From Miltoncostaeaceae bacterium (GTDB lineage Bacteria; Actinomycetota; Thermoleophilia; Miltoncostaeales; Miltoncostaeaceae), in the NCBI GenBank assembly GCA_963703045.1, contig OY969782.1, forward strand, positions 2,157,771 to 2,221,770: DNA of 64,000 nt, in the 5' to 3' direction. The notes below the pieces were generated by a model, which had not been told where the DNA came from, made no database searches, and saw nothing but the letters and a program-made list of their open reading frames with translations. The position numbers were made by a program, and so were the translations under genes. Positions 1 through 17,199 of this stretch are shown here, in pieces (within the stretch, counting starts at the first letter, position 1; every line of letters starts with the position of its first letter).

Positions 1-1299
1 TGGCGATGAACCCGCTCGACGAGGGCCACCACGAGCTGCTCGTCCGGTGCCTCGCTCTCGGCGGCGACCGCGCGGCCGCGATCGCGCATGCCGACCGGTG
101 CGAAGCGCTCTTCCGGGAGGAGCTCGGGGTGCCGCCCTCGCCCGCCGTGCGCCGCGCCGCCTTCGCGGGCGCCCCGGAGTCGGCGCGCGGATCCCGGGCC
201 AGCGCCGCGACGGCCCGGGGGCAGCTCGAGGCGGGCGAGGCCGCCGCCGCCGCGGGAGCCGCCGAGTCGGCGGTCGAATGGCTGCGGCGCGCGTGCACCG
301 AGGCCGCCCGGTCCGGCGACGGCGCCCTGCGCGCGAGGGCCCTCGTCGCGCTCGGCACCACGCTCGTGCACGCGGTGCGCGGCCGCGACGAGGAGGGCGC
401 GGCCGTGCTGCACCAGGCGATCGCCGTCGCGGGCCGCGCCGGCGACCGCGCGAGCGAGGTCGCCGCGCGGCGCGAGCTCGGCTACGTGAGCGTCCAGGCG
501 GGTCGCCGCGAGAGCGCCGGGCGGTGGCTGGCGTCGGCGGAGGCACTCGCCCAGGGCGACGCCGAGATCGCCGCCGTGCGCGCCGTGCAGGGCATGAACC
601 ACTCCGACATGGCCGAGTACGGCGCCGCCATCGCCCGGTTCTCCGAGGCCGTCGAACGCGCCGACGCCTGCGGCGACGGGCGGCTGGCGGCGTGGTCGTT
701 GTCGCTGCTCGGCCGTCTGCACCTGCTGCGCGGCGACGACGCTCCGGCGTCCGAGGCCATCGATCGCTGCCTCGCCCTGGTCGACGACGAGCACTGGCTC
801 GCGTTCTGCCCGCTGCCCGAGACCCTGCGTGCGGAGCTCGACGTGCGCGCCGGCGACGTGGGCGCTGCCTCCGACCGGCTCGAGCACGCCTTCGGCCTCG
901 CGTGCCAGTTCGAGGATCCCTGCTGGGAGGCCCTGTCGGCGCGCGGCATCGGCCTGCTCGAGGCGCGCCGCGGCGACCCCGACGGCGCCCGCCGGTGGCT
1001 GGAGGACGCGCTGGCGCGCTGCGCGCGCTACCCCGACCGCTACGAGTGGGCGTACGGCCACGTGCTCGACGCGCTCGCCGGCGAGGCCGTCCGGGCGGGC
1101 GACCCGGCCGCGCGCGGGTGGGCGCACCGGCTCGAGGGCGCTGGCCGCCGCAACCGGCATGCGCGAGCTGGTCGTGCGCGCGCAGCTGCACCTCGGCCGC
1201 CTGGGCGCGCCGGGCGCGCTCGCGTCAGCGCGCCTACTCGCCCGCGACATCGACAACCCGGTGCTCGACCGCCTGCTCGACGGGGCCGTCCGGGACTGA
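1..1299 (+). CDS. SARP/AfsR-type regulator, C-terminal part (BTAD plus TPR-like helical region). The 5' end lies outside the window and the frame changes near 1134-1140.
   Basis: ORF 6..1370 opens inside a BTAD-like segment (HELLVRCLALGGDRAAAIAHADRCEALFREELGVPPSPAV). After about 1140 that frame loses its G/C third positions. The frame of ORF 829..1299 has about 50 of 53 codons ending in G/C (hand count) and ends ...MRELVVRAQLHLGRL...LDGAVRD stop. Confidence 0.6.
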
Positions 1300-1380
1300 G
1301 GGCGCCACGCCTCACACGCCGCCTCACACGCATCTCGGCGAGCCTGTCCCCACAGGGACATCCCGAATGAGGAGGACGTC

Positions 1381-2208
1381 ATGAGCACGACGACAGCCGG
1401 AGCCGCCGCGCTGAAGCAGCGGCACCGCGCGATCTGGGCCTCCGGCGACTACGGGGCCGTCGCCGAGGCCCTGGTGATGGAGCTCGGCCCGCTCATCGTC
1501 GACCGGATCGGCGTCGGCCCGCACGACGAGGTGCTCGACGTGGCGACCGGAACCGGCAACGCGGCGCTACCGGCCGCCGCCACGGGGGCGCACGTGGTGG
1601 GGCTCGACCTGACGCCCGAGCTGCTGCGCGTCGCCCGCCGCCGCGCCGGCGAGGCCGGGCTCGACATCGAGTGGGTCGAGGGCGACGCCGAGGACCTGCC
1701 CTTCGAGGACGGGCGCTTCGACGTGGTCGTCTCGACGCTCGGAGTGCAGTTCGCGCCCCACCACGCGCAGGCGGCGCGCGAGCTCGCCCGGGTGTGCCGG
1801 CCGGGCGGCCGGATCGGCCTCTGCAACTGGACCCCGCAGGGCTTCATCGGCCGCTTCCTCGCGACGATCGGCCCCTACATGCCGCCGCCGCCGGAGGGTG
1901 TCTCGCCGCCGCCGCCGTGGGGCAGCGAGGACCACGTGCAGGAGCTGTTCGCGGGGACCGGCGTGCGCGTCGTCTTCGAGCGCCGGACGGTCGACTTCCG
2001 CCACGACACGCCCGCCTCGTTCGTCGACTTCATGGCGACCGAGTACGGCCCGCTGATCGCCGCCCGCGAGCTGCTGACGACGCAGGGACGCTGGGACGAG
2101 CTGCGCGCCGCCCTCATCGCGCTCTGCGAGGAGGGCGACGCCGGCCGCGACGGCACGTTCCTGGTGCCGAGCGAGTACCTCGTCGTAGTCGGCGAGAAGG
2201 CGGCCTGA
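1381..2208 (+). CDS. class I SAM-dependent methyltransferase
   Basis: 275 aa with SAM-binding motif VLDVATGTGNAA followed by VVGLDLTPELL and DAEDLPFEDGRFDVVVS. An AGGAGGA RBS sits before the ATG. Confidence 0.85.
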   Translation: MSTTTAGAAALKQRHRAIWASGDYGAVAEALVMELGPLIVDRIGVGPHDEVLDVATGTGNAALPAAATGAHVVGLDLTPELLRVARRRAGEAGLDIEWVEGDAEDLPFEDGRFDVVVSTLGVQFAPHHAQAARELARVCRPGGRIGLCNWTPQGFIGRFLATIGPYMPPPPEGVSPPPPWGSEDHVQELFAGTGVRVVFERRTVDFRHDTPASFVDFMATEYGPLIAARELLTTQGRWDELRAALIALCEEGDAGRDGTFLVPSEYLVVVGEKAA

Positions 2209-2215
2209 GAGCCCG

Positions 2216-2824
2216 TCAGGCGGCCGCCACGAGGGCGCAGAGCAGGCCCACCGCCTCATCGTCCGCGAGCTCCTGCTCGCGGACGAGGGACCGCCAGGTC
2301 GAGAACGCGACCGCATGGCCGACCGCGGCCCGCTCGCGCGCCGCCGCGGCGCCACGGCGGCGCGGGCGGCCCGCCAACAGGGTCTGCCGCGCCGCCCGCA
2401 GGTACTCGTGGAAGACGGCGAACCGCTCGGCGATCAGCGGCACCACGGGTTCGTCGCGGTAGAGGCTCTCGAGCATCCCCCCGGTGCGCGCGTAGTACGC
2501 GTGCAGCTCCACGAGCGCCTTGCGCAGGCGCTCGCCGGGGTCGGCCACCGCCGCCCATGCGCCGAGGTCGGGCGGCGGGTTGGCCGCCGACCAGTGGGTG
2601 CTGCAGGCGTCGAACAGCGCCGCCTCGTCGGGGAAGTGGCGGTACAGCGTCAACCGGCGCACGCCCGCGTGCTCGGCAACGGCGCTCATCGAGGTGTACG
2701 CCGGGCCGAGCGACTCGTGCAGGGCCACCGCGCTCTCGGTGATCCGCCGCCGGGTGTCCTGCTGCAGCTCGGCGCGCCGGGTCATCCGGTAGGGGCGGAC
2801 GGCTCTCTCATCGGTCTGGCTCAT
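2216..2824 (-). CDS. TetR family transcriptional regulator
   Basis: HTH segment TSMSAVAEHAGVRRLTLYRHFPDEAALF. Start placed at the internal MSQTDER (cat at 2822-2824). Confidence 0.85.
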   Translation of the reverse strand: MSQTDERAVRPYRMTRRAELQQDTRRRITESAVALHESLGPAYTSMSAVAEHAGVRRLTLYRHFPDEAALFDACSTHWSAANPPPDLGAWAAVADPGERLRKALVELHAYYARTGGMLESLYRDEPVVPLIAERFAVFHEYLRAARQTLLAGRPRRRGAAAARERAAVGHAVAFSTWRSLVREQELADDEAVGLLCALVAAA

Positions 2825-2909
2825 GTCGCACCCGGCATGTTGACGCACCGCGGACGATGCCATTATTCTATCGAACAGCAGTGTACGACGAAATAGGGAG
2901 GACGAAGCG

Positions 2910-3425
2910 ATGACCGTGACCTACGAGAGCCGGGTCCTCGGACCCGCCGAGGGCCGCGCGGGGTTCCTCGGCTCCATCGGCGTCCGATTCATGGTGGACG
3001 GCGACCTGACCGGCCAGGGGTTCTCGCTCGTCGAGCACCCGATGGGCCCCCATGCGCTCGCGGCCCCGTTGCACCGCCACAACCGCGAGGACGAGTACAG
3101 CTTCGTGATCGAGGGACGCATGGGCGCCCTGCTCGGCGACCAGGTGCTCGAGGCCGGGCCGGGCGACCTCGTGTTCAAGCCCCGCGGGGAGTGGCACACC
3201 TTCTGGAACGCCGGCGCGGAGCCCTGCCGCATCCTCGAGATCATCCAGCCGGCCGGCTTCGAGCGCTTCTTCGGCGAGATGCTCGACATCGGGGGCCTCG
3301 ACGCCGCTCCGGAGGCCATCGGCGCCCTCTGCGCCAAGTACGAGCTCGACATGCAGCCCGACTCGGTGCCGGGGCTGGTGGAGCGCTTCGGGGTGCGCCT
3401 CGGCGTGCCGCCCGTCGCGGCGTAG
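2910..3425 (+). CDS. cupin domain protein
   Basis: 171 aa with cupin-type motifs HRHNREDEYSFVIEG and GDLVFKPRGEWHTFWN. Divergent from the TetR gene. Confidence 0.8.
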   Translation: MTVTYESRVLGPAEGRAGFLGSIGVRFMVDGDLTGQGFSLVEHPMGPHALAAPLHRHNREDEYSFVIEGRMGALLGDQVLEAGPGDLVFKPRGEWHTFWNAGAEPCRILEIIQPAGFERFFGEMLDIGGLDAAPEAIGALCAKYELDMQPDSVPGLVERFGVRLGVPPVAA

Positions 3426-3642
3426 GGCTCACGACCCCCGGGCCGGCGCGGTCGCCCCGACGCCGCCGGCCCGCCGTCGTCGCCCGGGTGCGCCCGCGGC
3501 GCGTTCCCGGTCGGGGGAGCGCCAAACGGCATCCGCCGGGCGACGATCCGCGACGACCTCGCGTTCCCGGGGTTGCTTCCGTCTGGCCGTCCGGGGCACA
3601 GGACGAGCACGCGGCACCCGCCGCATCGTCATGTGAGGAGGA

Positions 3643-3897
3643 ATGGACATGAAGGGTCTCGACGGCGTGACCATGGCCGTGCTGATCGTCGGTGGCCTGA
3701 ACTGGCTGCTCGTGGGCCTGTTCGAGTGGGACCTGGTCGCCTGGATCTTCGGCGGCATGGAGTTCGGTGAGACCAACGTCGCGTCGAGGATCGTCTACAT
3801 CGCCGTGGGCGTCTGCGCGCTCTACTGGATCCCCCGACTGCCCGCGCTGCTCGGCCGGGCGGACCGCGACCGGCACACGACCGCCACGGCGCGTTAG
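3643..3897 (+). CDS. DUF378 family small membrane protein
   Basis: 84 aa. LIVGGLNWLLVGLFEWDLVAWIFGG...SRIVYIAVGVCALYWI matches the DUF378 pattern. A GAGGAGG RBS lies upstream. Confidence 0.8.
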   Translation: MDMKGLDGVTMAVLIVGGLNWLLVGLFEWDLVAWIFGGMEFGETNVASRIVYIAVGVCALYWIPRLPALLGRADRDRHTTATAR

Positions 3898-3967
3898 TCG
3901 GACCGGGGGGACGGGGTCCGCCGGTCCCGTCCCCCCGATCCGCCCGCGCGGCGACCGGCGCGCCCCA

Positions 3968-4405
3968 CTAGGCCGGGGGCGGCGTCATCAGCACGGCGGG
4001 GTCGATGTACTCGGTCTCCTCGGCGATCAGCCCGTCTCGCACCCGGTAGATCGAGACCGCCGGCACGTCGACCGCCTCGCCGCGGGCGGGCCACGCACCC
4101 CAGTCCTCGCGATGGGTGCCGGTGAGGTGCCACTCGAGCCACGCGGTGTCCGGCGGGCCCTCGCCGACCCGCAGCACCTCGACCCTCAGGTCGGGGACGG
4201 CGACCATGAACCCGCGGATGCGCTCGCCGATCGCCTCACGCCCCGTGAACCGCGGGAAGCGCGCGCCGCCGGCCGTGGCGCGCGCGAGGATGCGGCCCTC
4301 GCGCACGCCGTCCTCGGCGAAACAGGCGGCGCAGGCGCCGGCGTCCATCCTGTTCCAGGCGTCCATGTAGGCCAGCGCGGTCTCGCGCGGGGTCCGGTCC
4401 GGCAT
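3968..4405 (-). CDS. SnoaL-like / NTF2-fold protein (ester-cyclase-like)
   Basis: 145 aa. The N-terminus ALAYMDAWNRMDAGACAACFAEDGV and the C-terminus VSIYRVRDGLIAEETEYID are typical of SnoaL-like domains. Confidence 0.75.
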   Translation of the reverse strand: MPDRTPRETALAYMDAWNRMDAGACAACFAEDGVREGRILARATAGGARFPRFTGREAIGERIRGFMVAVPDLRVEVLRVGEGPPDTAWLEWHLTGTHREDWGAWPARGEAVDVPAVSIYRVRDGLIAEETEYIDPAVLMTPPPA

Positions 4406-4430
4406 CTCGGGTCTCCCGTGTCGGGGTGTC

Positions 4431-5501
4431 TCAGCCGTCCGCTGCCCGGCTCAGGGCGTCGTCGAAACCGGGGTTGCCGGGGTGGTAGGTCATCTCGCGG
4501 TTGCGCCGCACGACCGGCTCCGCGAGCGCCTCGCCGGCCGCGGTGCGCCCGATCGGCCGCAGGTGGCGCTTCCTCCAGACGGCGATCCGGTAGAAGACCC
4601 CACCGCCGAACGCGGCGTAGCTGTCACGGATCGGCCCGCGCCAGGCGTCGCCCGGGACCGGGTCGGGGCGGATCGCCAGGCCCGCGGCGCGAGCCTCGTC
4701 GCAGATCCACTCCCGCGCGAGGGACGAGAGGGGGTTGTCGGTCTCGGGACGCGGCGTGCCGCCGCCGCCGACGTTGCCGTGGCTGCCCGCGAACCACCGC
4801 TGCACGCAGCTCGTCGAGTGGCCCTCGACGGGCCGCGGCACCCCGTCCCAGAGCGTCGCGACGAAGTGCGGGCGCTGCTCGTCGATCGCGACCGCGTGGC
4901 GCGCGACGTCGACCAGCCCGCTCAGCTTGGTGTCGTGGAACTCGTAGCGGCCGCGGGTCAGCGGGCGCAGAAGCCCTCCGGGGATGCCGAGCGCGCCGAC
5001 CGTGTCGAAGACGCCGACGAAGCGGATGCGGGCCAGCGTCGACCGCTCGAGCATCAGCCGGTCCTCGTCGTCGCGCGGCGCCGACTCGCCCCGCTGCATC
5101 TCGTTGAGGCCGGGACGCGCCACACCCTCCCGGTAACGCGCGAAGACGCGCGAGGCGGGCAGGTGCCGGTCGGGGATGATGCCGCAGCGGGCGATCATGC
5201 CCGCCAGGCTCCGTGCCGTGAACGCGCCGCGGCTGTAACCGAACAGGTAGATGCGGTCCGTGGGTCCCGTGTAGACCCGGGCGATGTCGGCGTAGGCCTC
5301 CTCGATCTTGCCGTTGAGGCCATGGCCGAAGAGGCCCCCGCGCAGGCGTTGGCCCATGGCCGTCCCCACCCCGCCGCTGTAGAGCGTCTCCTGGCGGACG
5401 CCGTCGCCGTCCGCCGGCGCGACGCGGCTCGCGATCTGAGCCACGTTCGTGTGCGTGTGGGGCTCGTTCCAGGTGCCGTCGAGACAGACCGCGATGTTCA
5501 T
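4431..5501 (-). CDS. DUF2235 (Tle1-like alpha/beta hydrolase) domain protein
   Basis: 356 aa with NIAVCLDGTWNEP, the nucleophile-elbow-like LFGYSRGAFTARSLAGMI, and VGVFDTVGALG. Confidence 0.75.
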   Translation of the reverse strand: MNIAVCLDGTWNEPHTHTNVAQIASRVAPADGDGVRQETLYSGGVGTAMGQRLRGGLFGHGLNGKIEEAYADIARVYTGPTDRIYLFGYSRGAFTARSLAGMIARCGIIPDRHLPASRVFARYREGVARPGLNEMQRGESAPRDDEDRLMLERSTLARIRFVGVFDTVGALGIPGGLLRPLTRGRYEFHDTKLSGLVDVARHAVAIDEQRPHFVATLWDGVPRPVEGHSTSCVQRWFAGSHGNVGGGGTPRPETDNPLSSLAREWICDEARAAGLAIRPDPVPGDAWRGPIRDSYAAFGGGVFYRIAVWRKRHLRPIGRTAAGEALAEPVVRRNREMTYHPGNPGFDDALSRAADG

Positions 5502-5607
5502 CCGTCCACCCCCTGCCGAAGGCCGGCCGCGACCCTGACGCTATATCGCCCCATCGCGGGCGGTCACCCCCCGGACGCGGATGCGTCCGGCGGGGGGTGA
5601 CGGATCG

Positions 5608-5964
5608 TCAGAAGGTGATGATCTCGTAGCCCTTGTCCAGCAGGGTCTTGATGCTCGGGTGCCCCTTGTACTCGTCGAGCAGCTTCACGCCGCACGCGAC
5701 GACCTCGTCGCGCACCTCGAACGCGTTCGAGCAGTAGTCGCACGCGCCGGCGACGATCGCCTCCAGGTCGGTGTAGACCTCGTGGTAGGGGTGGTCCTCC
5801 TTCGACAGCTCGGGCACCCAGCGGGTACCCGCCCCGTCGAAGATGATGCAGACCTCGTCGCCCGCGTCGCGGAACTCGCCCGCCACGCGCATCGCGTTGA
5901 CGACGCGACCGAGGTCGCCCTTGGTCTCGGTGTCCGCCAGGACGACGATCGCCGCCTTGCTCAT
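5608..5964 (-). CDS. DsrE/DsrF-like family protein
   Basis: 118 aa from the internal MSKAAIVVLADTETKGDLGRV... (cat at 5962-5964). A small alpha/beta protein with a conserved Cys region, GACDYCSNAF. Confidence 0.6.
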   Translation of the reverse strand: MSKAAIVVLADTETKGDLGRVVNAMRVAGEFRDAGDEVCIIFDGAGTRWVPELSKEDHPYHEVYTDLEAIVAGACDYCSNAFEVRDEVVACGVKLLDEYKGHPSIKTLLDKGYEIITF

Positions 5965-6286
5965 ACGACCTCCCCGCTCGTGACCGCCCGGTGCGGTCTC
6001 GACGAGAGGTTCCCCGGTCCGGCACTCGCGACGCCCGTGGCGCCGCGACCGCCCCCGCCGTCGCGGCACGGAGTCCGACGGCGGTGCGGCGGGCATGGCC
6101 GTGGGACCAGGAGGACGAGGACGCGGCGTGACGGGGGGGATCGCACGCGACGCGACTCCACCCCGGCTCGAGGCGCGCACGACCCCGCGCTGTTCGACCG
6201 CATCCCGGCCGAGGCCGTCGCCCGCACGTCCGGCTGTCGGCCTCGGCGGGCACCGTTCGTCGTCCCCCCGCCGCCGCCGCCGGCGG

Positions 6287-7159
6287 TCACCGCACGTCGC
6301 GCGACTGCGGCAGCCTCGCCGAGCCCCGCCTCGCGGGCTTCGCCGAGGGGGGCGGCACCACCGGACCGATGTCGCCGTCGGGGGCGTCGTCGAGGTCGAC
6401 GACGACGGGCGCGTGGTCGCTCGGCCCCGTGCCCTTTCGCGCCTGGCGGTCGACCCAGGCCGCGCGTACGCGTCCGGCGACCGGCTCGGACGCCAGCGCG
6501 AGGTCGATGCGCATGCCGAGGTCCTTGTGGAACATGCCCGCGCGGTAGTCCCAGTAGGTGAAGATCCGCTCCGAGGGCCAACGCTCGCGCACCACGTCGC
6601 GCAGGCCGAGCGACACGAGCTCGCCGAGCGCGGCCCGCTCGGGCGGGGTCACGTGCGTGTGGCCGGCGTAGGCGTCGGGGTCGAAGACGTCGGCGTCGGT
6701 GGGGGCGATGTTCATGTCGCCGGCGACGATCACCCCATCCGGGCCGGCTGAGACGACGTCACGCAGCGCGGCCAGCCACGCGAGCTTGTAGCGGTAGTGG
6801 TCCGAGTCGGGCCGCCGGCCGTTCGGGACGTAGACCGAGTGCACGCGCACCCCGCCGCATGTCGCCGCCACGGCGCGCGCCTCGGGGACCTCCCAGTCGG
6901 GCGCGCCGTCGAGGCCGGCCACGACATCGTCGAGCCCCACCCGGGAGAGGATCGCCACCCCGTTCCACTGGCCCTGGCCGTGCGCGGCCACCGCGTAGCC
7001 GCGGCGGGCCAGCTCGTCGCCGAGCAGCTCGTCGAACGCGGCGTCGGCGATCTTCGTCTCCTGCAGGCACACGACGTCGGGGCTGCGCTCATCGAGCCAC
7101 GGCAGCAGGCGCGGCATCCGCTGCCGCACCGAGTTGACGTTCCAGGTCGCGATCCTCAT
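6287..7159 (-). CDS. xthA: exodeoxyribonuclease III
   Basis: MRIATWNVNSVRQRMPRLLPWL...VVCLQETK...GDMNIAPTDADV...SDHAPVVVDL. Only the C-terminal 290 aa of track ORF 6287..8266 is genuine. Confidence 0.9.
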   Translation of the reverse strand: MRIATWNVNSVRQRMPRLLPWLDERSPDVVCLQETKIADAAFDELLGDELARRGYAVAAHGQGQWNGVAILSRVGLDDVVAGLDGAPDWEVPEARAVAATCGGVRVHSVYVPNGRRPDSDHYRYKLAWLAALRDVVSAGPDGVIVAGDMNIAPTDADVFDPDAYAGHTHVTPPERAALGELVSLGLRDVVRERWPSERIFTYWDYRAGMFHKDLGMRIDLALASEPVAGRVRAAWVDRQARKGTGPSDHAPVVVDLDDAPDGDIGPVVPPPSAKPARRGSARLPQSRDVR

Positions 7160-8425: not shown

Positions 8426-9556
8426 TCAGGCCGCGACGAAGATCGGCAGGGAGACCAGGGCCTCGGTGCGGCCGGCGTCGCTGGTGGTCCGGACGTCGCC
8501 GTGGTGCAGGCGCGCCCGCTCGCGGGCACGCTCGATCGCGGCGGCGCCACGGCGCCGCATCGGCCCGGACACCCGCAGCTCGAGCGCCTGGTCGGCGAAG
8601 CGGACGTGCACCTCGACGCCGGGCGCGTCCCGGATCGCCTCGAGCAGGTGCTCGCAGACCCGGTACGCCGACAGCTCGACGCCGGCGGGCAGGACGCGCG
8701 GACGGCCCTCCACGGTCAGCCGCGCGCCCGGACCCTTGCTGCGGACCAGCAGGGCGTCGAGCTGGGTGAGCGTCGGCTGCGGGGCGGTCGCGGCATCGGC
8801 CTCGTCGTCGCGGAGCACCCCGACCACCGACCGCATCTCCTGCAGGGTGGCGCGGGCGTCGCGCTCGATGCGCCGGAAGGCGTCCCCGGCGACGTCCGGG
8901 TCGGCGTCGCCGCCCATCTCGGCCAGCCGGGCGAGCTCGCCGAGCCGCCGCTGGAGCAGCGCGTCGAGCTCGACGGAGAGGCGCTCCCGGTCGCCGGCGA
9001 CCTCGAGGCGCGCGTGCTCGTCGCGGGTGCGACGGAGCTCGACCGTCCGGGCCTGCAGCTCGCGCGCCATCCGGCCTCGCGAGCGGACGAGCAGCCCGAT
9101 CCCCCAGAGGACCGCGGTGAGCGGCGCGACGAAGGTGATCGCCCCCGCATCGGCTCCCGACGGCTCGTCGGTGATGCAGACGAGGATGCCGACGCCGAGC
9201 GCGACCGCGAGAGCGGTGATCGAGGCGCCTCGATCGAGCCGGACGCCCGCCGAGAAGACGAGCACGAACGCGACCGACAGCACGGGGCCGCAGCGGATGA
9301 CGCTGTCGCCGAACAGGGCGACGTGCACCAGCAGCCCCGCGAGCGTGGCGGCGAGGGCGGCGAGCGGCGCAGCCCGCCGCCAGAGGAGCGGGACGGTGAA
9401 GGCCAGTGCGAGCGGCGCCGCGAACGCGCTCACGTCCATCGCGTCGTCCGCCGCCTGCGTGAGCGTGAACGCGACGGCGACGAGGCTGACGAGCCCTGCG
9501 AGGACGATGTCGCGCCTGCCGATCGGTTCGCCTGCGGATGTCATGGATCGGAGCAT
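8426..9556 (-). CDS. histidine-kinase-like membrane protein lacking the phospho-accepting His (pseudokinase paralogue)
   Basis: Same architecture as the 7264..8424 kinase, but the H-box position reads RERLSVELDALLQRRL (no His). The N and G boxes are degenerate (CEHLLEAIRDA, VSGPMRRRG). Start MLRSM follows an AAAGGA RBS. Confidence 0.65.
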   Translation of the reverse strand: MLRSMTSAGEPIGRRDIVLAGLVSLVAVAFTLTQAADDAMDVSAFAAPLALAFTVPLLWRRAAPLAALAATLAGLLVHVALFGDSVIRCGPVLSVAFVLVFSAGVRLDRGASITALAVALGVGILVCITDEPSGADAGAITFVAPLTAVLWGIGLLVRSRGRMARELQARTVELRRTRDEHARLEVAGDRERLSVELDALLQRRLGELARLAEMGGDADPDVAGDAFRRIERDARATLQEMRSVVGVLRDDEADAATAPQPTLTQLDALLVRSKGPGARLTVEGRPRVLPAGVELSAYRVCEHLLEAIRDAPGVEVHVRFADQALELRVSGPMRRRGAAAIERARERARLHHGDVRTTSDAGRTEALVSLPIFVAA

Positions 9557-9786
9557 GGCGGTGGGGGTGTCCTTTCGTAAAGAGGATCCCGGCCGGGCGG
9601 GGATGGGCGCAGCGTCGGCCCCCGGGCCGCCGCCGTCGTCACCCGCACGGATGATCCGCCGCCCCGCCGCTCGTCGCGGCGGGTGATGCCGCAGGCACGG
9701 GGTGCGGAGATGCTGGCGTCGTCGGTCGATCTTGGATCCGGTTCCGCGACCCACTACGACGGATCGGGCGCCGGGAAGGAGACGCC

Positions 9787-10131
9787 ATGTCCCACACCTG
9801 CACCGCCAGGAGCGCCGACCTTCGACGCTGCGCCGTGCGGCTCGTCCTCGCGACCGCGATCCTCGTGGCCGCGGCGGCGTGGCTCGGCGCGCCCGGCCCC
9901 GTGGGGGCGGCGCCGCGTGGCGTGGTCGTGAGCCCGGACGGCCGCTCGTTGTACGTCGCCTCCACCACCGACGACTCGGTCACGCACTTCGCCCGCGACG
10001 CGGAGGGGCGCCTGTTCGATCGCGGCTGCGTCGGCGACGGCACCCCCGGCTGCATCCAGGTCACATCGCTCGACACCGTCGGCACGGCCGGCCTGCCGCT
10101 GCGGGCGAGCGTGACGGTGCGGGCGCGGTAG
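9787..10131 (+). CDS. small secreted protein with one lactonase/beta-propeller-like repeat
   Basis: 114 aa with an AAGGAG RBS 5 nt upstream and a signal-like RLVLATAILVAAAAWLGAPGPVGA. Contains VVSPDGRSLYVAS and has high G/C third positions. Confidence 0.6.
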   Translation: MSHTCTARSADLRRCAVRLVLATAILVAAAAWLGAPGPVGAAPRGVVVSPDGRSLYVASTTDDSVTHFARDAEGRLFDRGCVGDGTPGCIQVTSLDTVGTAGLPLRASVTVRAR

Positions 10132-10217
10132 CCCCGGCACCCACCCGGCCGGCCACCGACGCGGTGGCCGGCCGGGAGGATTGACCCCGCACCGCTCCCG
10201 GAAGAGAATCGCGCGCC

Positions 10218-11450
10218 GTGGACGGCCCCCTCGTCATCCTCCTCGTCGCCGCCCTGCCGCCCCCCCTCGTGCGGGCCGGGCGGACCGACGACGACGCGGC
10301 GGACACGGCGCGGCGCGCCGCGCTCGCACACCTGCGGCGTGCCCTCGACGCACACGGCGGCCGCGAGATCCGCACGACCGGCGCGAGCCTGATGGCGTCG
10401 TTCGCGAGCGCCGTCTCCGCCGTGCGCTGCGCCATCGAGATGCAGCGCACGGCGGGGGACGGGGGGCACGGCGACCTCCGCATCGGCCTCGCGGCGGGTG
10501 AGCCGATCGCCGACGGCGCGGACCTCCACGGCACCCCCGTGACCCTCGCGCTGAGGTTGTCGGAGACGGCGGCCCCGGGGGAGATCGTGGCGACCGACGT
10601 CGTCCGCCAGATCGCGGGGCCGCGGACCGCGGGTCGGATACGCGCCGCGGGAGGCCTGCGGCTGCCGGGCCTGGCCGAGCGCGTCGCCATCGCGCACGTC
10701 GTCTGGCGAGACGAGGACGCACCGGCCGGCCCGCCCGACGAGGGGCCCTCGACCGCCCCGGCGGCGGAGATCACGGTGGTGGTGGCCGACGACCAGCGGC
10801 TCCTGCGCGCGGGCTTCCGGGTGATCCTCGATTCGGAGCCGGACATCCGGGTGATCGGCGAGGCCGCCGACGGAGATGCGGCGGTCGAGATGGCGCGGGG
10901 CCGCCGACCCGACGTGGTCCTCATGGACATCCGCATGCCGGGGTGCGACGGTCTGCAGGCGGCGGAGCGCATCCTCGCCGAGCCCGGTCTGCGGACCGCC
11001 GTGCTCATGCTCACGACCTTCGATCGCGACGAGTACGTGTACGAGGCGCTGCGAATCGGCGCGAGCGGCTTCCTGCTCAAGGACACGCCCGCGGATCGGC
11101 TCCTGGACGCCGTGCGCGTCGCGGCGGCGGGCGAGGCGATGCTGGCGCCCGGGATCACGCGCCGGCTGATCGAGCGCTTCGCCCACGCGGCACGGCCGGC
11201 GTCCGGCGGCGTGCCGGCCGCGCTGTCGGCCCTCACCGCGCGTGAGATCGACGTGCTGCGCCTGGTCGCCCGCGGGCTGTCGAACGCCGAGATCGCCGCC
11301 CGACTCGTGCTGGGTGAGAACACCGTGAAGACCCACGTCGCCCACGTGCTCGGCAAGCTCGGCCTGCGCGACCGCGTGCAGGCCGTCGTACTCGCCTACG
11401 AGACCGGACTCGTCGACCGGCGGCTCTCGCCGGGCGACCCCTTCCGCTGA
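10218..11450 (+). CDS. response regulator with an N-terminal degenerate class III cyclase-homology domain (CHD-like + REC + LuxR HTH)
   Basis: REC: ITVVVADDQRLLRAGF...PDVVLMDIRMPGCDG. HTH: LTAREIDVLRLVARGLSNAEIAARLVLGENTVKTHV. The N-terminal 180 aa resemble a nucleotidyl cyclase fold (GASLMASFASAVSAVRCAIEMQR...LRIGLAAGEP...GTPVTLALRLSETAAPGEIV), but both metal-binding Asp positions appear substituted. Confidence 0.7.
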   Translation: MDGPLVILLVAALPPPLVRAGRTDDDAADTARRAALAHLRRALDAHGGREIRTTGASLMASFASAVSAVRCAIEMQRTAGDGGHGDLRIGLAAGEPIADGADLHGTPVTLALRLSETAAPGEIVATDVVRQIAGPRTAGRIRAAGGLRLPGLAERVAIAHVVWRDEDAPAGPPDEGPSTAPAAEITVVVADDQRLLRAGFRVILDSEPDIRVIGEAADGDAAVEMARGRRPDVVLMDIRMPGCDGLQAAERILAEPGLRTAVLMLTTFDRDEYVYEALRIGASGFLLKDTPADRLLDAVRVAAAGEAMLAPGITRRLIERFAHAARPASGGVPAALSALTAREIDVLRLVARGLSNAEIAARLVLGENTVKTHVAHVLGKLGLRDRVQAVVLAYETGLVDRRLSPGDPFR

Positions 11451-11491
11451 GTCTCCTCGCCGGCCGGGGTCCCGCCGCGGAGCGCCTCCGA

Positions 11492-12304
11492 TCAGCCGGG
11501 CTTGCGCGCGATCGCGAACAGCTTGGCGAACTCGTAGCGCCAGCCGCGCGTGCCTGACCGCTCGCGCAGCCGCGCCTCGATGTTGGCCACGTACTCGGCC
11601 ACCTCCGCCTCGGACTGGTCGCCGATCACGTGGCCCGCGACGACCCGCATGCGCTCCATGTACGCCTCGACCGAGGTGTGGCGCACCCGGGTCTCCATCC
11701 AGATGTCGAGCGGCTCCAGGCCGGCGCCGACGAGGTAGTCCTCCATCTCCTCCCCGTCGCGCTGGTTGCCGTCGAAGGCGCCCACCCACCGGTAGTTGAT
11801 CGGCTCGACGTTGGAGATCACGTCCCGGTAGGCCTGCTCGCCGCCGCGTCCCGACATGAGGATCGCGACGACCCCGCCCGGCCGGAGCGCCCGGGCCATC
11901 GCCCGTGCCGCCTCCCACTTGCGCGGGAACCAGTGGTAGGCCATCGAGCAGATCACGAGGTCGAACGAGCCCTCGGCGACCGGCATGGCTTCCACGTCGG
12001 CCTCGGCCAGCGTGATCTCCACGCCCTCGATGCCGCCGAGCTTGGCCCCGAACCTCTCGAGCATGCCGGCGGCGGGGTCGACGCCCGTGATCCGCGCGGG
12101 GCGGAAGCGGTCGATCACGGCCTGGGTCGCCCACCCGGTGCCGCAGCCGACATCCAGCACGTCGTCGTACCGGCCGGGCGGGATGCTGAGCACGAGGCGC
12201 TGCGCGCCCTCGATGTTGAACCGGACGGCGTCCTCGTAGTCCGATGCGGTCTCGGTGAACCCGCCGGAGACCGACTCGTGGCTGCTGTGGATGTGCGACG
12301 ACAT
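11492..12304 (-). CDS. class I SAM-dependent methyltransferase
   Basis: 270 aa from MSSHIHS (cat at 12302-12304). Motifs VLDVGCGTGWAT, ITGVDPAAGML and EGSFDLVICSMAYHWF. Confidence 0.85.
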   Translation of the reverse strand: MSSHIHSSHESVSGGFTETASDYEDAVRFNIEGAQRLVLSIPPGRYDDVLDVGCGTGWATQAVIDRFRPARITGVDPAAGMLERFGAKLGGIEGVEITLAEADVEAMPVAEGSFDLVICSMAYHWFPRKWEAARAMARALRPGGVVAILMSGRGGEQAYRDVISNVEPINYRWVGAFDGNQRDGEEMEDYLVGAGLEPLDIWMETRVRHTSVEAYMERMRVVAGHVIGDQSEAEVAEYVANIEARLRERSGTRGWRYEFAKLFAIARKPG

Positions 12305-12419
12305 GTTCGGGCGGTGCTCCTGGGTGAGGGGGCGGGCCGGTCGAGCCGTGGGCTTCGTGACCGGATCATGTCTACACGGCTCGCGCGGCTCCTCGCGGAA
12401 CCGCTTCGCCCGCCCGGCG

Positions 12420-12446
12420 CCCCACCCTGCTCGGCGCAGGGTGGGG
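12420..12446 (-). terminator. GC-rich hairpin downstream of the response regulator gene (candidate intrinsic terminator, no U-tract)
   Basis: ccccaccctg (12420-12429) pairs perfectly with cagggtgggg (12437-12446) around a 7-nt loop. It lies about 70 nt past the stop at 12518. Confidence 0.4.
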
Positions 12447-12517
12447 AGGGGGGTCCTCGTCCACCGCGTCGTCGATGGCACCTCCCGACGACCGGTCCGG
12501 ACGGACTCGCCGCCCGG

Positions 12518-13144
12518 TCAGCTCACGTCGATGAGGCCGCGGCTGATCGCGACGCTCACGGCCCCGGCCCGCGTGTCGACGCCGAGCTTGGCGAAGAGGT
12601 GCGCGACGTGACTCTTGACCGTGGCCTCGCTCAGGTTCAGCCGGTCGGCGATCCCCCGGTTCGTCAGCCCGTCGGCCAGGTGCCCGAGGATCTCGAGCTC
12701 GCGGGCGGTCGGGGCCGGGGTCGGGCTGCGGAGGCGACTCATCAGCCGGCCCGCGACCGGGGCCGCGAGCACGGTGTCCCCGCGGGCGGAGCCCACGATC
12801 GCCGCGGCGAGCTCGTCGATCCTGGTGCCCTTCAGGAGATAGCCGGTCGCACCCGCCTCCGCGGCCCGCACGATGTCCTGCTCGCTGTCGTAGCTCGTGA
12901 AGACCAGTACGCGGGGCGCGTCGGGAAGCGAGGCGATCCGGCGCGTCGCCTCGATGCCGTCGATGCCGGGCCCCATCCGGAGATCCATCAGCGCGACGTC
13001 GGGGCGCGTCCGCGCGGCCTGCGCGACGGCCTCCTCGCCGTCCGCCGCCTCGCCGACGATCTCGAGGCCGGGGACCTCGTCGAGCATCGCGCGCAGCCCT
13101 TCCCGCACGACGGGGTGGTCGTCGACGATCAGCACGCGCACCAC
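12518..13144 (-). CDS. NarL/LuxR-family response regulator with no adjacent kinase
   Basis: VRVLIVDDHPVVREGL...PDVALMDLRMGPGIDG...LTARELEILGHLADGLTNRGIADRLNLSEATVKSHV. GTG start chosen at 13144, and 13141 is equally possible. Confidence 0.85.
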   Translation of the reverse strand: MVRVLIVDDHPVVREGLRAMLDEVPGLEIVGEAADGEEAVAQAARTRPDVALMDLRMGPGIDGIEATRRIASLPDAPRVLVFTSYDSEQDIVRAAEAGATGYLLKGTRIDELAAAIVGSARGDTVLAAPVAGRLMSRLRSPTPAPTARELEILGHLADGLTNRGIADRLNLSEATVKSHVAHLFAKLGVDTRAGAVSVAISRGLIDVS

Positions 13145-13269
13145 GCCCCCACCGCCGGCCGGGTCGCCCCCCCGGCGCCGCGCGCGCGGCGTTCCCCGGA
13201 GCCAGCCGCGCGCCGACGCGCGGTCGCCGGGGGCATCTGCGGATGAGCCGATCGGGGGTCCTCCCACGA

Positions 13270-13280
13270 CGTGATTCACG
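13270..13280. promoter_or_regulatory. 11-bp palindrome CGTGATTCACG in the divergent intergenic region
   Basis: Perfect dyad around a central T, read directly from the sequence. It lies in a locally low-GC stretch between the response regulator gene and the micro-ORF. Confidence 0.4.
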
Positions 13281-13299
13281 TTCGGATCGGCTCGTATCT

Positions 13300-13315
13300 A
13301 CTCATATGTATGAGT
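13300..13315. promoter_or_regulatory. 16-bp perfect inverted repeat ACTCATA-TG-TATGAGT (candidate operator)
   Basis: 7-2-7 dyad read directly from the sequence. It is the most AT-rich spot I noticed in this window. Direct repeats of AATCACC and GAGTCGT follow within 90 nt. Confidence 0.5.
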
Positions 13316-13490
13316 CGTCAATCACCTGAACGGACGTCCAGGAAATCACCCGTCGGTCTGATGATCGGGCGCGGCTCCGTTGATTGAGTCGTGCGACCGC
13401 CGCCGCCCACCCGTCCCTCCGACGGGCCGGCGCGTGGCGTGACACCGGCGGCGATGGCTCGCCGGGTCAGACCAAACGGAGGGGCGCACC

Positions 13491-13622
13491 ATGCCGAAGT
13501 ACGGCGGCTACTATCCCGCGAAGCGCAAGGGCAAGCACGGCTCGAGTTCCGGGTCGAGCAAGAGCAGCTCGAGCAAGTCGCGCTCGAAGAGCTCCGGGTC
13601 CTCGAAGTCCAAGCACTGCTGA
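13491..13622 (+). CDS. 43-aa Ser/Lys-rich micro-protein (not in the ORF track): MPKYGGYYPAKRKGKHGSSSGSSKSSSSKSRSKSSGSSKSKHC
   Basis: GGAGG at 13478-13482 sits 8 nt before the ATG. 41 of 43 codons end in G/C, although the local DNA is less GC-rich. Composition is 16 Ser, 9 Lys, 2 Arg and a single C-terminal Cys. Confidence 0.7.
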   Translation: MPKYGGYYPAKRKGKHGSSSGSSKSSSSKSRSKSSGSSKSKHC

Positions 13623-13640
13623 GAGCGGAGTGAACTTCTC

Positions 13641-13670
13641 GGCCGCGCCCCGCCCGCCGGCGGCGCGGCC
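13641..13670 (+). promoter_or_regulatory. GC-rich intercistronic stem-loop between the micro-ORF and the ABC gene (possible attenuator or processing site)
   Basis: ggccgcgcc (13641-13649) pairs with ggcgcggcc (13662-13670). An inner gcc/ggc pairing closes a 4-nt loop. The ABC gene RBS GGCGGAG follows immediately. Confidence 0.5.
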
Positions 13671-13682
13671 GGCGGAGTGCTG

Positions 13683-15554
13683 ATGGCGGAGCCCGCACAC
13701 CGAGCCGGTCTGGCGGCGCGCGTCCGCCTCGCGCTCCTGCCCGCGGCGCTGAACAGCGGCCTCGTGGCCGAGGCGCCGCCCGTACCCATCCGGGACATCT
13801 TCCGCCGCTTCTGGCCCTATGCCCGGCCGTATCGGGCCTGGCTGTGGGGCACCCTGGTGTTCATCGCGATCGGCCCGGCGATCGACATCGCGACCATCTG
13901 GCTCTTCAAGGAGGTCGTTGACGAGGTCTTCGTGCCGATGGACCTCGGGCCCCTCCCCTGGATCGCGGCCGCCTACATGGGCGTCGTCCTGCTGGGAGGG
14001 ATCGTCAACTTCGCCGACGACTACCTCTCCGCGGTGGTCGGCCAGCGATTCCTGCTCGACCTGCGCACCTCGTTCTTCCGCCACCTGCAGGGGCTGTCGC
14101 TCGACTTCTTCGAGCGGCGCCGACTCGGCGACACGATGTCGCGGGTCACGGGCGACATCGCCTCGATCGAGACGCTCGTGCTCTCGGGGGTCGCCGACGC
14201 GCTCTCCTACGTCCTCCGCATCGGGCTCTTCGCCGGGGCCCTCTTCGTGCTGCAGTGGGACATGGCCCTCGTCGCCCTGGTCGTCGTGCCGCTCTTCTAC
14301 GGCACCGCGCGCCGCTTCTCGCAGCGCATCAAGCTGGCCTCGCGCGAGCGCCGGCGCCGCTCGGGGTCGATCAGCGCGGTGGCCGAGGAGTCGCTCTCCA
14401 ACGCCGCCCTCGTGCAGGCCTACAACCGCCAGTCGACCGAGGTGGAGCGGTTTCGGCAGGAGAGCGTGGGATCGATGGCGGCGACGCTGGCCGCCACGCG
14501 CATCCAGGCGGCGTTCTCGCCGCTCGTCGACCTGATCGAGCTCGCCGGCGCGCTCATCGTGATGGCGATCGGGACGTGGCAGCTCGCCGAGGGTCGCCTG
14601 AGCCTCGGCGGCCTTCTCGCCTTCCTCGCGCTCCTCAGCAAGCTCTACAGCCCGATCCGGGGGCTGACGCGACTGACGAACACGATCTACTCCGCCTCGG
14701 CGAGCGCCGAGCGCATCATCGAGTTCCTCGATCAGGAGCCGTCGGTCACGGATCCGCCGCATCCCCGTCCGGTGGGACGGGCGACCGGCAACGTGCAGTT
14801 CGCCGGCGTGTCGTTCGCGTACCCCGGCACCTCCCGGTCGGCGCTCGACGAGGTCTCGTTGCGCGCCGAGCCCGGAGAGATCCTGGCGCTGGTCGGCGCG
14901 AGCGGCGCCGGCAAGTCGACCGTCGCGAAGTTGCTGCTGCGCTTCTACGATCCCGACGACGGCCGAGTGCTGCTCGACGGCGTGGACGTGCGCGAGCTCT
15001 CGCTGGTCGAGCTGCGCGAGAACGTCGCGGTGCTGCTGCAGGAGACGCTCGTCTTCGACGGGACGGTGCGCGAGAACATCGCGTTCGGGCGCCTCGGCGC
15101 CACCGACGACGAGATCGAGGGGGCGGCCCGCGCCGCCGACGCGCACGACTTCATCGCGCGCCTGCCCGAGGGGTACGACACCTCCATCGGCCAGAAGGGG
15201 CGGCGGCTCTCGGGCGGACAGCGCCAGCGGATCGCCATCGCCCGCGCCATGATCCGCGACGCGCCGGTGCTGATCCTCGACGAGCCGACGACCGGGCTCG
15301 ACGCCGAGAGCGCGGAGCGCATCATGGCCCCCCTCCGCCGGCTCATGAGCGGCCGGACCACGATCGTGATCTCCCACAACCTGCTCACCGTGAGGGAGGC
15401 CGATCAGATCGCCGTGCTGCAGGCCGGTCGCATCGCCGAGAGGGGCACGCACGCCGAGCTCGTGGCCCGGGACGGGCTCTACGCGGAGCTGGACCGCCTC
15501 CACCGCGGGCGCGAGGCTGCCGCGACGAGCCTCGCCGGTGAGGTGCCGGCGTGA
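13683..15554 (+). CDS. ABC exporter, fused permease and ATPase (type I exporter, MsbA-like half transporter)
   Basis: Six-TM N-terminal domain, Walker A GASGAGKST, signature LSGGQRQR and Walker B VLILDEPT. No C39 peptidase domain. The ATG at 13683 is preferred over the GTG at 13677. Confidence 0.9.
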   Translation: MAEPAHRAGLAARVRLALLPAALNSGLVAEAPPVPIRDIFRRFWPYARPYRAWLWGTLVFIAIGPAIDIATIWLFKEVVDEVFVPMDLGPLPWIAAAYMGVVLLGGIVNFADDYLSAVVGQRFLLDLRTSFFRHLQGLSLDFFERRRLGDTMSRVTGDIASIETLVLSGVADALSYVLRIGLFAGALFVLQWDMALVALVVVPLFYGTARRFSQRIKLASRERRRRSGSISAVAEESLSNAALVQAYNRQSTEVERFRQESVGSMAATLAATRIQAAFSPLVDLIELAGALIVMAIGTWQLAEGRLSLGGLLAFLALLSKLYSPIRGLTRLTNTIYSASASAERIIEFLDQEPSVTDPPHPRPVGRATGNVQFAGVSFAYPGTSRSALDEVSLRAEPGEILALVGASGAGKSTVAKLLLRFYDPDDGRVLLDGVDVRELSLVELRENVAVLLQETLVFDGTVRENIAFGRLGATDDEIEGAARAADAHDFIARLPEGYDTSIGQKGRRLSGGQRQRIAIARAMIRDAPVLILDEPTTGLDAESAERIMAPLRRLMSGRTTIVISHNLLTVREADQIAVLQAGRIAERGTHAELVARDGLYAELDRLHRGREAAATSLAGEVPA

Positions 15555-16462: not shown

Positions 16463-17199
16463 GGGCGGTCAGCCGGCGGTCCGCTCCCACCGAACCGGCG
16501 CTCGAGCACGACGCACACCCCGCCGTGGTCGCTGAGCGGCCGACCGTCGGCGTCGTGGCGATCGAACCCCTCCAGCGCGCGCACCGCGAGGGAGGTCGAG
16601 TGGGCCACGTGGTCGATCACCTGGCGATCGATGCCGGCGACGTGCCCGGCCGGTCGCCACCACGAGATCCCCGAGGCAATCCCCGAGCGCGGCCGCCACC
16701 CGGATCGGAGCCCGGGTGCGTGGGATGCGCTGGTTGAAGTCGCCGACGAGGAGCGTCGGCACGCCGGCGTCCCGCCCGGCCAGCAGCGGGCCCAGATGCT
16801 CGAGGTAGGTCAGGTGATCCCCCCCGGCGCCCGGACCCGCCTGCCGGTGCTCACGTGGGCGTGGCTCCAGGGAATGCAGACGCCGATGAGGCGCAATGGT
16901 CCGTCCGGGGTCCGGCAGGTGGCCGCCACGAAGCGGCCCGGTGGCAGCTCCGACGAGCCGATCGGATCGAGGTCCTCGAGCGGCCACCGGGTCCACAGGA
17001 TCACCTTGCGCCGTCCGCCCCTGACGCCGTATCCGGAGTCGGCCTCGCATTCGGCGAGATGCCCGCCGGCGGGAAGGATGTCGGCGTCGGCCTCCGTGGC
17101 GCAGAGGATGTCGGGAGAGAACTCGGAGAGCCGCGCGGCGATCCGAGCCCGGCGCGGGCGAGGTGCCCACTCGAGGTTCCAGTTCACGACCCTGATCAC
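16423..17199 (-). pseudogene. endonuclease/exonuclease/phosphatase (EEP) family gene interrupted by two opposite-sign frame changes
   Basis: The N-terminal part (MIRVVNWNLEW...IGVCIPW) and the C-terminal part (IDHVAHSTS...PLSDHGGVCVVLER) share one frame. The middle part (DHLTYLEHL...LLVGDFNQRIP) is in another frame. The junctions are at a G7 run (16819-16825) and at ccggcc/ggg (about 16640-16650). Confidence 0.7.

Follow-up and report, generated by a model that had tools for sequence, protein, structure and literature searches.

Few ribosomal natural products are phosphorylated (PMC12639078). In the linear polyphosphorylated peptides (LPPs) of Bacillota, an HprK-like kinase builds a phosphate chain on one Ser residue, and the clusters encoding them comprise a discrete RiPP recognition element (RRE; RiPP, a peptide made on the ribosome and modified after translation), a SpI-type leader peptidase, an NTP-transferase, an MsbA-like exporter and 1–3 precursor genes (PMC13381572, Nat Commun 2026). 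In phosphorylated lasso peptides (paeninodin, pseudomycoidin), a kinase tailors the ribosomal peptide and an ABC transporter exports it (PMC12639078). Phospeptin from 'Ca. Eudoremicrobium malaspinii' is modified by a LanM-type dehydratase domain of lipid-kinase fold with a mutated elimination site (PMC9259500). The present analysis concerns a 43-codon micro-open reading frame (micro-ORF) which lies ahead of the genes for an ABC exporter and a stand-alone Hanks-type Ser/Thr kinase in the genome of a Miltoncostaeaceae bacterium (assembly GCA_963703045.1, contig OY969782.1). The stretch of DNA analyzed, referred to here as the window, has a length of 64,000 nucleotides (positions 2,157,771 to 2,221,770 of the contig). 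A full-text literature search found no description of a peptide-exporter-kinase cassette of this kind.

Comparison with related loci shows that the micro-ORF is genuine and that it serves as the structural gene in a conserved cassette of three genes. We tentatively favor, though we would not yet call it probable, the reading that the peptide is both the dedicated multi-site substrate of the kinase and the cargo of the exporter, which would make the locus a minimal RiPP-like cassette. This function is what we infer from features that are themselves observed, namely the gene, the conservation of its family, the synteny, the coupling and the catalytic residues. A preliminary description of this DNA, made by a model from its letters, had proposed an exported, multiply phosphorylated peptide or a kinase substrate, and both proposals are viable and represent the best-supported readings on sequence grounds.

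The LPP clusters are the closest to the cassette in logic, having small precursors conserved at the N-terminus and highly variable at the C-terminus, together with an MsbA-like exporter and a dedicated kinase. However, the cassette kinase is of the Hanks type, and no RRE, peptidase or transferase is found in the cassette. The motif YxxPxVLxHQxIxFETxxS of the LPPs also differs from the motif [FY]x4P[AG] of the cassette peptides, whose tails are of low complexity and whose hosts are Actinomycetota and Chloroflexota. An LPP/paeninodin-type cluster was considered and rejected, with only Pkinase and ABC domains being detected in the cassette proteins (Pfam, NCBIfam) and the YxxP leader motif being absent. 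The cassette lacks every component on which the phosphorylated lasso peptides depend (HprK-type kinase, lasso cyclase, B protein and RRE). Phospeptin is similar in being a linear ribosomal peptide on which one co-encoded enzyme phosphorylates multiple Ser/Thr residues as the final modification, but this enzyme is no Hanks kinase and the peptide is without a low-complexity tail.

The preliminary description had reported a GGAGG site 8 nt upstream of the 43-codon ORF, 41 of 43 codons ending in G or C, 16 Ser, 11 Lys or Arg and a single terminal Cys, and each of these figures was confirmed from the sequence (9 Lys and 2 Arg; product MPKYGGYYPAKRKGKHGSSSGSSKSSSSKSRSKSSGSSKSKHC; Table 1). The average G+C content of the window is 74.7%, and that of the micro-ORF at codon positions 1, 2 and 3 is 0.30, 0.65 and 0.95, respectively. 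The G/C-ending codons had been taken as a strong coding signature, and this part of the description was found to be overstated. A third-position G+C content (GC3) of at least 0.95 occurs in 27 of the 78 ORFs of 35–60 aa in the window, chiefly antisense to real genes, and GC3 by itself does little to single out micro-ORFs in this genome. It is informative in the present case only owing to the intergenic location of the ORF and the lack of periodicity in its 5′ flank (0.68, 0.66, and 0.64 for the three codon positions).

The peptide gave no match when searched against a collection of 5.8 billion proteins, the same collection containing the kinase and the exporter of the window. The preliminary description could place it in no known family, and indeed Pfam, NCBIfam, and PADLOC gave no family match for it, nor did Pfam and NCBIfam for nine homologous peptides; the family is thus apparently undescribed, as far as these searches indicate. 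Rfam had no match in window positions 13200–13800, and scans of the same region for sigma-70 promoter and T-tract terminator consensus sequences gave nothing, these consensus models fitting a high-G+C organism poorly. No DNA-level tandem repeat was identified in the ORF using Tandem Repeats Finder, which means that its low complexity sits at the codon level and not in a simple DNA array.

Since the direct peptide search gave no match, the kinase was used as a handle to find relatives. Every locus with an orthologous kinase and sufficient upstream DNA was taken, resulting in 22 distinct loci (given L numbers here), of which three came from reference genomes (Streptomyces pratens, a Chloroflexota metagenome-assembled genome (MAG) and a Saccharopolyspora strain), six from a metagenome scan and the rest from exact-protein look-ups. 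They belong to Streptomyces, Saccharopolyspora, Rubrobacteraceae, and Chloroflexota, together with soil metagenome contigs. A small ORF (36–67 aa) was found at the same place in 21 of the 22 loci. Twenty of these ORFs (36–60 aa) precede an ABC-kinase pair, lying 60–171 nt upstream of the exporter. The exporter stop overlaps the kinase start in 20/22 loci, usually by 4 nt; in the window, the GTG start of the kinase overlaps the exporter stop by 4 nt, an arrangement which suggests translational coupling. The preliminary description had the ORF heading an exporter/kinase operon, and an ABC exporter followed by an overlapping Pkinase gene was indeed identified by Pfam. Its link between a coding ORF and these two genes also stands, as a loss of conservation of the ORF or its frame beside the ABC-kinase pair was not found (21 of 22 loci, with indels in frame).

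The genes flanking the cassette vary between loci (valS, clpX, and tig in L081, metH in L087, and two-component genes in L085, L179, and L002), from which it follows that the conserved unit is the three-gene cassette. Sister kinases are accompanied by similar peptides (L081/L102, L177/L178, L085/L179, and L173/L175), so the cassette is inherited as a unit. The Saccharopolyspora locus L003 has a kinase only, without an adjacent exporter, and a peptide of 67–72 aa with DSSDHRRRR repeats is located directly before the kinase (5693–5911). A secreted S8 subtilase is encoded upstream and a PP2C phosphatase three genes downstream, these observations covering 4355–6834 and 8517–9374 of L003.

That the peptide genes are translated is indicated by several features. 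Upon reading the upstream sequences by eye, a strong GGAGG or GGAG-type site was seen at the proper distance in approximately 17 of the 19 loci read. When peptide genes were aligned in pairs at the DNA level (seven alignments), all 17 of 17 gaps were multiples of three. The Chloroflexota MAG locus L002 carries two tandem, diverged peptide genes (3602–3754 and 3807–3953) with 76% DNA identity and in-frame indels of 6 and 12 nt, and 20 of the 34 mismatches between them fall at codon position 3. A chance or untranslated ORF would be in keeping with the frequency of high GC3 among spurious small ORFs here (27/78) and with the absence of the ORF from the protein collection. This explanation is scarcely credible, however, when 21/22 loci from different phyla agree in the position and frame of the ORF, in its Shine-Dalgarno site and in the N-terminal motif, and homologs have been called independently as genes by gene callers on many contigs. 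It is the comparative evidence, that is, the same ORF position, the kept frame and the common N-terminal motif in these 21 loci, which takes the micro-ORF beyond chance.

The N-terminal motif [FY]x4P[AG] was found in 14 of 20 peptides compared with 8 of 633 control ORFs (1.3%), the controls being ORFs of 30–70 aa taken at these same loci. It had been formulated on the first eight peptides and was then applied to later ones, and it was present in 8 of the 12 held-out peptides found after it was fixed; L099, a later find, also carries it (FQEVMPA). Two peptides are clearly homologous to that of the window, namely L181, with a common MxKYxGxYPxKRK, and L173, which starts MGAFNGVVPA and has a Ser/Lys tail ending KGH (KKSSKKSDKSKSKKSKGH). 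Beyond the motif the tails are hydrophilic, of low complexity and hypervariable, with a recurring plan of a cationic Arg/Lys/His patch and a block that is acidic or rich in Ser/Thr. Between 4 and 19 Ser/Thr residues are present in every peptide, and the net charge is positive in 19/21. No conserved GG or GA cleavage motif was found in the family. Cys is not conserved, most members having none, and thioether (lanthionine) chemistry is therefore unlikely. Tails with His-rich or His/Cys-rich repeats (KSHKSC, SHKSG, RDHG, DHRRR) were observed in L099 (~1470–1600), L175 (1006–1134), L001 (3849–4019), and L003 (5693–5911), which hints that one subgroup of these peptides binds metal.

A GC-rich stem-loop is situated between the peptide stop and the exporter start in the window, with an extended fold spanning 13634–13678 and reaching the exporter GGAG at 13674–13677. 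In the relatives, a GC-rich stem-loop starts 10–45 nt past the peptide stop, with a mean z-score of minimum free energy of −3.0 (19 loci), perfect runs of 9–17 bp in 15 of 19 loci and T-rich tracts after several. The hairpin of L002 follows the second peptide copy only, and L003 has none. A small ORF followed by a terminator-like hairpin before structural genes is the classical layout of an attenuator, and most loci do have such a hairpin 3′ of the small ORF. A cis-acting leader peptide (upstream ORF) was considered, in which a stall of translation on Ser, Lys, Arg or Thr codon runs would set read-through of the hairpin and hence expression of the exporter and kinase. Like the his, thr, and trp attenuators, the cassette has a short ORF with runs of a single codon type (12 Ser in L087, 13 Arg in L085) and a hairpin ahead of an operon, and the hairpin of the window has a 3′ arm that extends to the ribosome-binding site of the exporter.

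Unlike these attenuators, however, the cassette has no antiterminator: pairing of upstream sequence with the 5′ arm of the hairpin was no better than for shuffled sequence (mean z +0.6, 16 loci). The enriched residue varies among orthologs of the same operon (S/K, SG, T/S/D, R, Q/S/D, RDHG), whereas the conserved part is an amino acid motif at the N-terminus, distant from the stop codon. Nor do the codons correspond to an amino acid handled by the operon, which consists of exporter and kinase genes and not of genes for amino acid biosynthesis or metabolism. Tandem copies in L002, the missing hairpin of L003 and the lack of an Rfam match argue in the same direction. The Ser/Lys-codon regulatory leader put forward in the preliminary description is consequently disfavored, and a leader function of any codon type is considered improbable.

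The kinase has orthologs in more than 120 clusters, mostly from soil metagenomes, which are stand-alone proteins of 252–330 aa (mostly 260–300 aa) with approximately 60% identity. The window kinase matches Pfam Pkinase with an E-value of 3e-34. Residues K58, E77, H150-x-D152-LKP-x-N157, D169, T185, and those of the APE motif (P191-E192) are invariant in 26 orthologs, by which the catalytic Lys, the αC Glu, the HRD-type loop, the Mg-binding Asp and the APE motif of Hanks-type Ser/Thr kinases are all accounted for. The core was modeled by AlphaFold2 (AF2) with a confidence score (pLDDT) of ~96, and the nearest folds are PknB, CaMKII, Aurora, and AMPK. With its catalytic residues intact, the kinase looks functional, as judged from the alignment and the model. 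No NCBIfam model reached its cut-off (PknB-type, 97 vs. 450; LanL, 92.6 vs. 650). Four cysteines were also observed to be invariant or nearly so, C53 and C55 (RxCRC, just before the catalytic Lys), C137 and C257, and these may form a redox or metal site, which would be unusual among Hanks kinases.

Class III/IV lanthipeptide systems (RamC/SapB, LabKC, LanL) share with the cassette a Hanks-like kinase domain phosphorylating Ser/Thr of a precursor, and ABC exporters. Their synthetases possess in addition a lyase and a cyclase, and their precursors Ser/Ser/Cys motifs, whereas the cassette kinase is a stand-alone protein of 303 aa. A LanKC/LanL system was rejected on the basis of the scores (lanthi_synth_IV, 92.6 vs. 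650; lanthi_synth_III, 30.1 vs. 575) and the absence of a LanC-like ORF from the 9–22 kb part of the window. The lanthipeptide reading in general was likewise set aside, with no lyase or cyclase being found and the Cys being unconserved.

The exporter was identified as a fused half-transporter by Pfam (ABC_membrane, E-value 2e-46; ABC_tran, 5e-35), and its PDB matches are P-gp, MsbA, and Sav1866. All NCBIfam scores are below the curated cut-offs, including that for MsbA (496 bits vs. 602), so it is no MsbA equivalog. It has no C39 peptidase domain and does not classify as a peptidase-containing ABC transporter (TIGR01193, 282 vs. 523.85; NHLM_micro_ABC1, 304 vs. 853). Its relatives form more than 120 clusters at 64–72% identity, the closest with a source name being Thermoleophilia and Solirubrobacterales MAGs. 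No exporter-kinase or exporter-peptide fusion was found among the best 120 exporter homologs.

An anti-phage or conflict system was also considered, in which the kinase and the exporter would act together with the peptide as an accessory part or as a toxin neutralized by phosphorylation. In PADLOC, the kinase matches PD-T4-6 (E-value 3e-39) and mad6, and the nucleotide-binding domain of the exporter matches mad3, but these matches span only the generic kinase and P-loop cores, and the scores with NCBIfam are low (MADS6 (MAD6), 82 bits vs. a cut-off of 460; BREX PglW, 60 vs. 990). The cassettes lie among housekeeping genes (valS, clpX, clpP, and tig in L081) and not in defense islands, without adjacent defense genes and with no methyltransferase or other system partner conserved beside them. 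With all matches sub-threshold and the flanks of a housekeeping nature, the defense reading was rejected as very improbable.

The main rival to the favored reading is that the peptide is not exported and is instead a trans-acting phospho-regulator. A cytoplasmic peptide would dock by its N-terminal motif, become multiply phosphorylated and gate or cluster an exporter of some other, conserved substrate, in the manner of a detached 'R domain'. The CFTR R domain is disordered and phosphorylated by protein kinase A, and in M. tuberculosis the ABC exporter Rv1747 is regulated by the adjacent kinase PknF, whose gene adjoins that of Rv1747. Both precedents are ABC exporters controlled by a Ser/Thr kinase together with a disordered, Ser/Thr-rich segment that is multiply phosphorylated. 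The segment lies within the transporter there, whereas here it is encoded separately, by a 43-aa gene that has a Shine-Dalgarno site and a hairpin to itself and is sometimes duplicated. The 64–72% identity of the exporter, which is not seen in the tails, fits with a conserved non-peptide substrate and a tail that needs just disorder, charge and phospho-sites, and the translational coupling of exporter and kinase suggests a complex. Against such a regulator are the two tandem peptide genes in L002, the hairpin which separates peptide expression from that of exporter and kinase, the peptide-kinase pair of L003 without an adjacent exporter, and the absence of exporter fusions to peptide or kinase among the best 120 exporter homologs. 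It is considered possible but rather unlikely.

The reading of the peptide as kinase substrate and exporter cargo is preferred because the link between peptide and kinase is the tightest, being kept without the exporter in L003, and because a short conserved N-terminal tag is combined with a hypervariable tail. It is also preferred because precursor copies occur in tandem in L002, the hairpin uncouples expression of the peptide from that of the enzymes, the exporter and kinase are translationally coupled, and the analogous LPP clusters use MsbA-like exporters. The proposed course of events is as follows. The adjacent two-component regulator would turn the cassette on, and the strong Shine-Dalgarno site would drive efficient translation of the peptide. 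The stem-loop past the peptide stop would make the peptide message outnumber that of the exporter and kinase, by analogy with the structural genes of bacteriocins and lanthipeptides. The co-encoded Hanks kinase would then read the N-terminal motif and phosphorylate the tail at many Ser/Thr residues, and the coupled ABCB-type exporter would secrete the phosphopeptide.

Several observations weigh against this proposal. No protease, RRE or other RiPP hallmark was found in Pfam and NCBIfam scans of the cassette. The exporter is far better conserved (64–72% identity) than the peptide tails, which fits with a conserved substrate other than the tail, unless the motif alone is recognized. Few Ser/Thr residues are present in some peptides (4 of 56 residues in L001 and 6 in each of the L002 copies), and the hairpin of the window taken alone is not significant (z about −1). 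The kinase has a degenerate Gly-rich loop (SRGESLDV), with DLS in the place of DFG. AF2 modeling of a peptide-kinase fusion, with the natural tail as linker, predicted no docking, the motif having a pLDDT of 40–50, but the peptide part was without alignment depth, which makes this a weak test that says little either way. Finally, L096 has no separate peptide ORF, the one exception among the 22 loci. Its exporter ORF (174–3203) was observed to be 1009 aa long, with an in-frame extension of ~400 aa that shows coding GC3, two hydrophobic segments and a segment ...RFRRRGLVPAREHELEVESDEE.... The first impression was of a peptide-exporter fusion, but the extension has transmembrane segments and looks more like a different fused or extended protein; a fusion, the loss of a stop codon or an artifact of assembly could each account for it.

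The coordinates of the features in the window are collected in Table 1, together with the sequences of related peptides. Divergently oriented from the peptide gene is a gene for a response regulator, which gave NarL/MadR-like matches in NCBIfam, all sub-threshold. In contig P0080 a 43-aa gene is flanked by a similar divergent LuxR-type regulator and a HisKA_3 kinase, and two-component genes are likewise next to the cassette in L085, L179, and L002. A divergent LuxR-type response regulator is carried by the ram cluster as well. The TACTCAT of the palindrome in the intervening region resembles the NarL heptamer TACYYMT, and we take the palindrome to be a candidate operator. Further signaling genes were seen 5′ of the cassette (8426–12481), namely a HisKA_3/DUF7134 histidine kinase at 8426–9754 (minus strand) and a second LuxR-type response regulator at 10218–11450 (plus strand) with an N-terminal extension of ~185 aa; a SAM methyltransferase at 11492–12481 (minus strand) also lies upstream of the cassette. 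Just 3′ of the kinase (16469–17199, minus strand), a 129-aa ORF at 16810–17199 matches the first half of Exo_endo_phos only and overlaps a 233-aa ORF without a Pfam match, and it may be a frameshifted or decayed gene.

Table 1. Features of the peptide-exporter-kinase cassette and its promoter region in the window, with peptides encoded at related loci.
Feature	Position	Strand	Description
Micro-ORF, 43 aa	13491..13622	+	ATG 13491 to TGA ending 13622; disordered, cationic, Ser/Lys-rich peptide; basis: sequence, family conservation, frame-preserving indels
Shine-Dalgarno GGAGG	13478..13482	+	Exactly 8 nt ahead of the micro-ORF ATG
Motif copy YGGYYPA, codons 4–10	13500..13520	+	Window instance of [FY]x4P[AG]; putative docking/recognition element
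GC-rich stem-loop	13640..13671	+	Between peptide stop and exporter start; 10 perfect bp
Fused ABC exporter	13683..15554 (alternative GTG start 13677)	+	Pfam ABC_membrane and ABC_tran; ABCB/MsbA-like type IV half-transporter
Stand-alone Hanks-type Ser/Thr kinase, 303 aa	15551..16462	+	Pfam Pkinase only; GTG start
NarL/LuxR-type response regulator	12518..13279	-	Pfam Response_reg and GerE; divergent from peptide gene; candidate cassette regulator
Palindrome ACTCATA-TG-TATGAGT, perfect 7-2-7	13300..13315		AT-richer divergent promoter region; candidate response-regulator operator
L173 peptide			MGAFNGVVPATGSDPHGTKKSSKKSDKSKSKKSKGH
L175 peptide			MGAFKGACAASNGNDGGSHKSGSHKSNKSHKSGSHKSHKSGK
L099 peptide			MFQEVMPAIGKFHCRSRKSHKSCKSHKSCKSHRSRKHKHCGW
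L085 peptide			MAKFNQVSPAASFSASDTSRSGGRRRRRRRRRRRRRNRSNT
L002 peptides, two tandem copies			MFGIFTALRPALAAQADAQSRSGGGRKRRRRNRKRNRRRNRNRSRSRSRG and MQGIFAALRPALVAKVDAQSNSRSGGGKRRRRRNRKRNRNRSRSRSRG
L177 peptide			MSHGRRRRRRRRVGQFTATTPAQNTSGEDTGDSQDQSSQSQASQPEQEND
L081 peptide			MARRHHRRHRKHGLHFHGIKSAHHRRKKSGGGTSTSTSSDTSTSTSTDTGEGTKT
L087 peptide			MARRSMKARSFRRVKTATRSHTDGHGSSSSSSSSSSSS
L001 peptide			MAIFSNLIPAHRRDRNNDTSRRDDFSGRDHGRDHGRDRDHGRDHGDRHGQGHGRGY

There is a substantial chance that the cassette is further removed from the kinase-tailored exported peptides, its peptide being either one of a class of secreted phospho-polyampholytes or a regulator that acts in trans on an ABC exporter. 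In the first case, which on its own is a rather doubtful though conceivable outcome, the peptides would be secreted block polyampholytes, with a cationic patch and a densely phosphorylated Ser/Thr block, and would represent a new class of ribosomal product made by a stand-alone Hanks kinase and an ABCB exporter. The 7-residue N-terminal tag would then suffice, leaving the tail unconstrained and able to evolve through the expansion of repeats. Such peptides would range over soil Actinomycetota (Streptomyces, Saccharopolyspora, and Rubrobacteraceae, the nearest named exporters being from Thermoleophilia) and Chloroflexota. Possible roles would be that of a phospho-masked cationic antimicrobial (prodrug), for which streptomycin-6-phosphate is a precedent, or that of a silaffin- or SR-like binder of mineral, metal or matrix aiding life in dry soil. 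Diatom silaffins and the SR/RS domains of eukaryotes need densely phosphorylated Ser residues for their function, and these Ser/Lys- or Arg/Ser-rich low-complexity sequences are alike by analogy only, being eukaryotic and unrelated in sequence to the cassette peptides.

The peptides make up a hidden gene family which has largely been missed by gene callers and domain databases, yet the kinases and the exporters of soil bacteria to which it is linked form more than 120 clusters each. If the favored reading is true, phosphorylation by a Hanks kinase that needs a 7-residue tag and tolerates varied tail sequences would be new enzymology and could serve as a simple tool to make and secrete phosphopeptides; if the peptide is instead a regulator, a detachable 'R-domain' peptide controlling an ABC exporter would also be new. 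Either way, the cassette would offer a clean three-gene system for the study of bacterial Ser/Thr kinases with dedicated disordered substrates.

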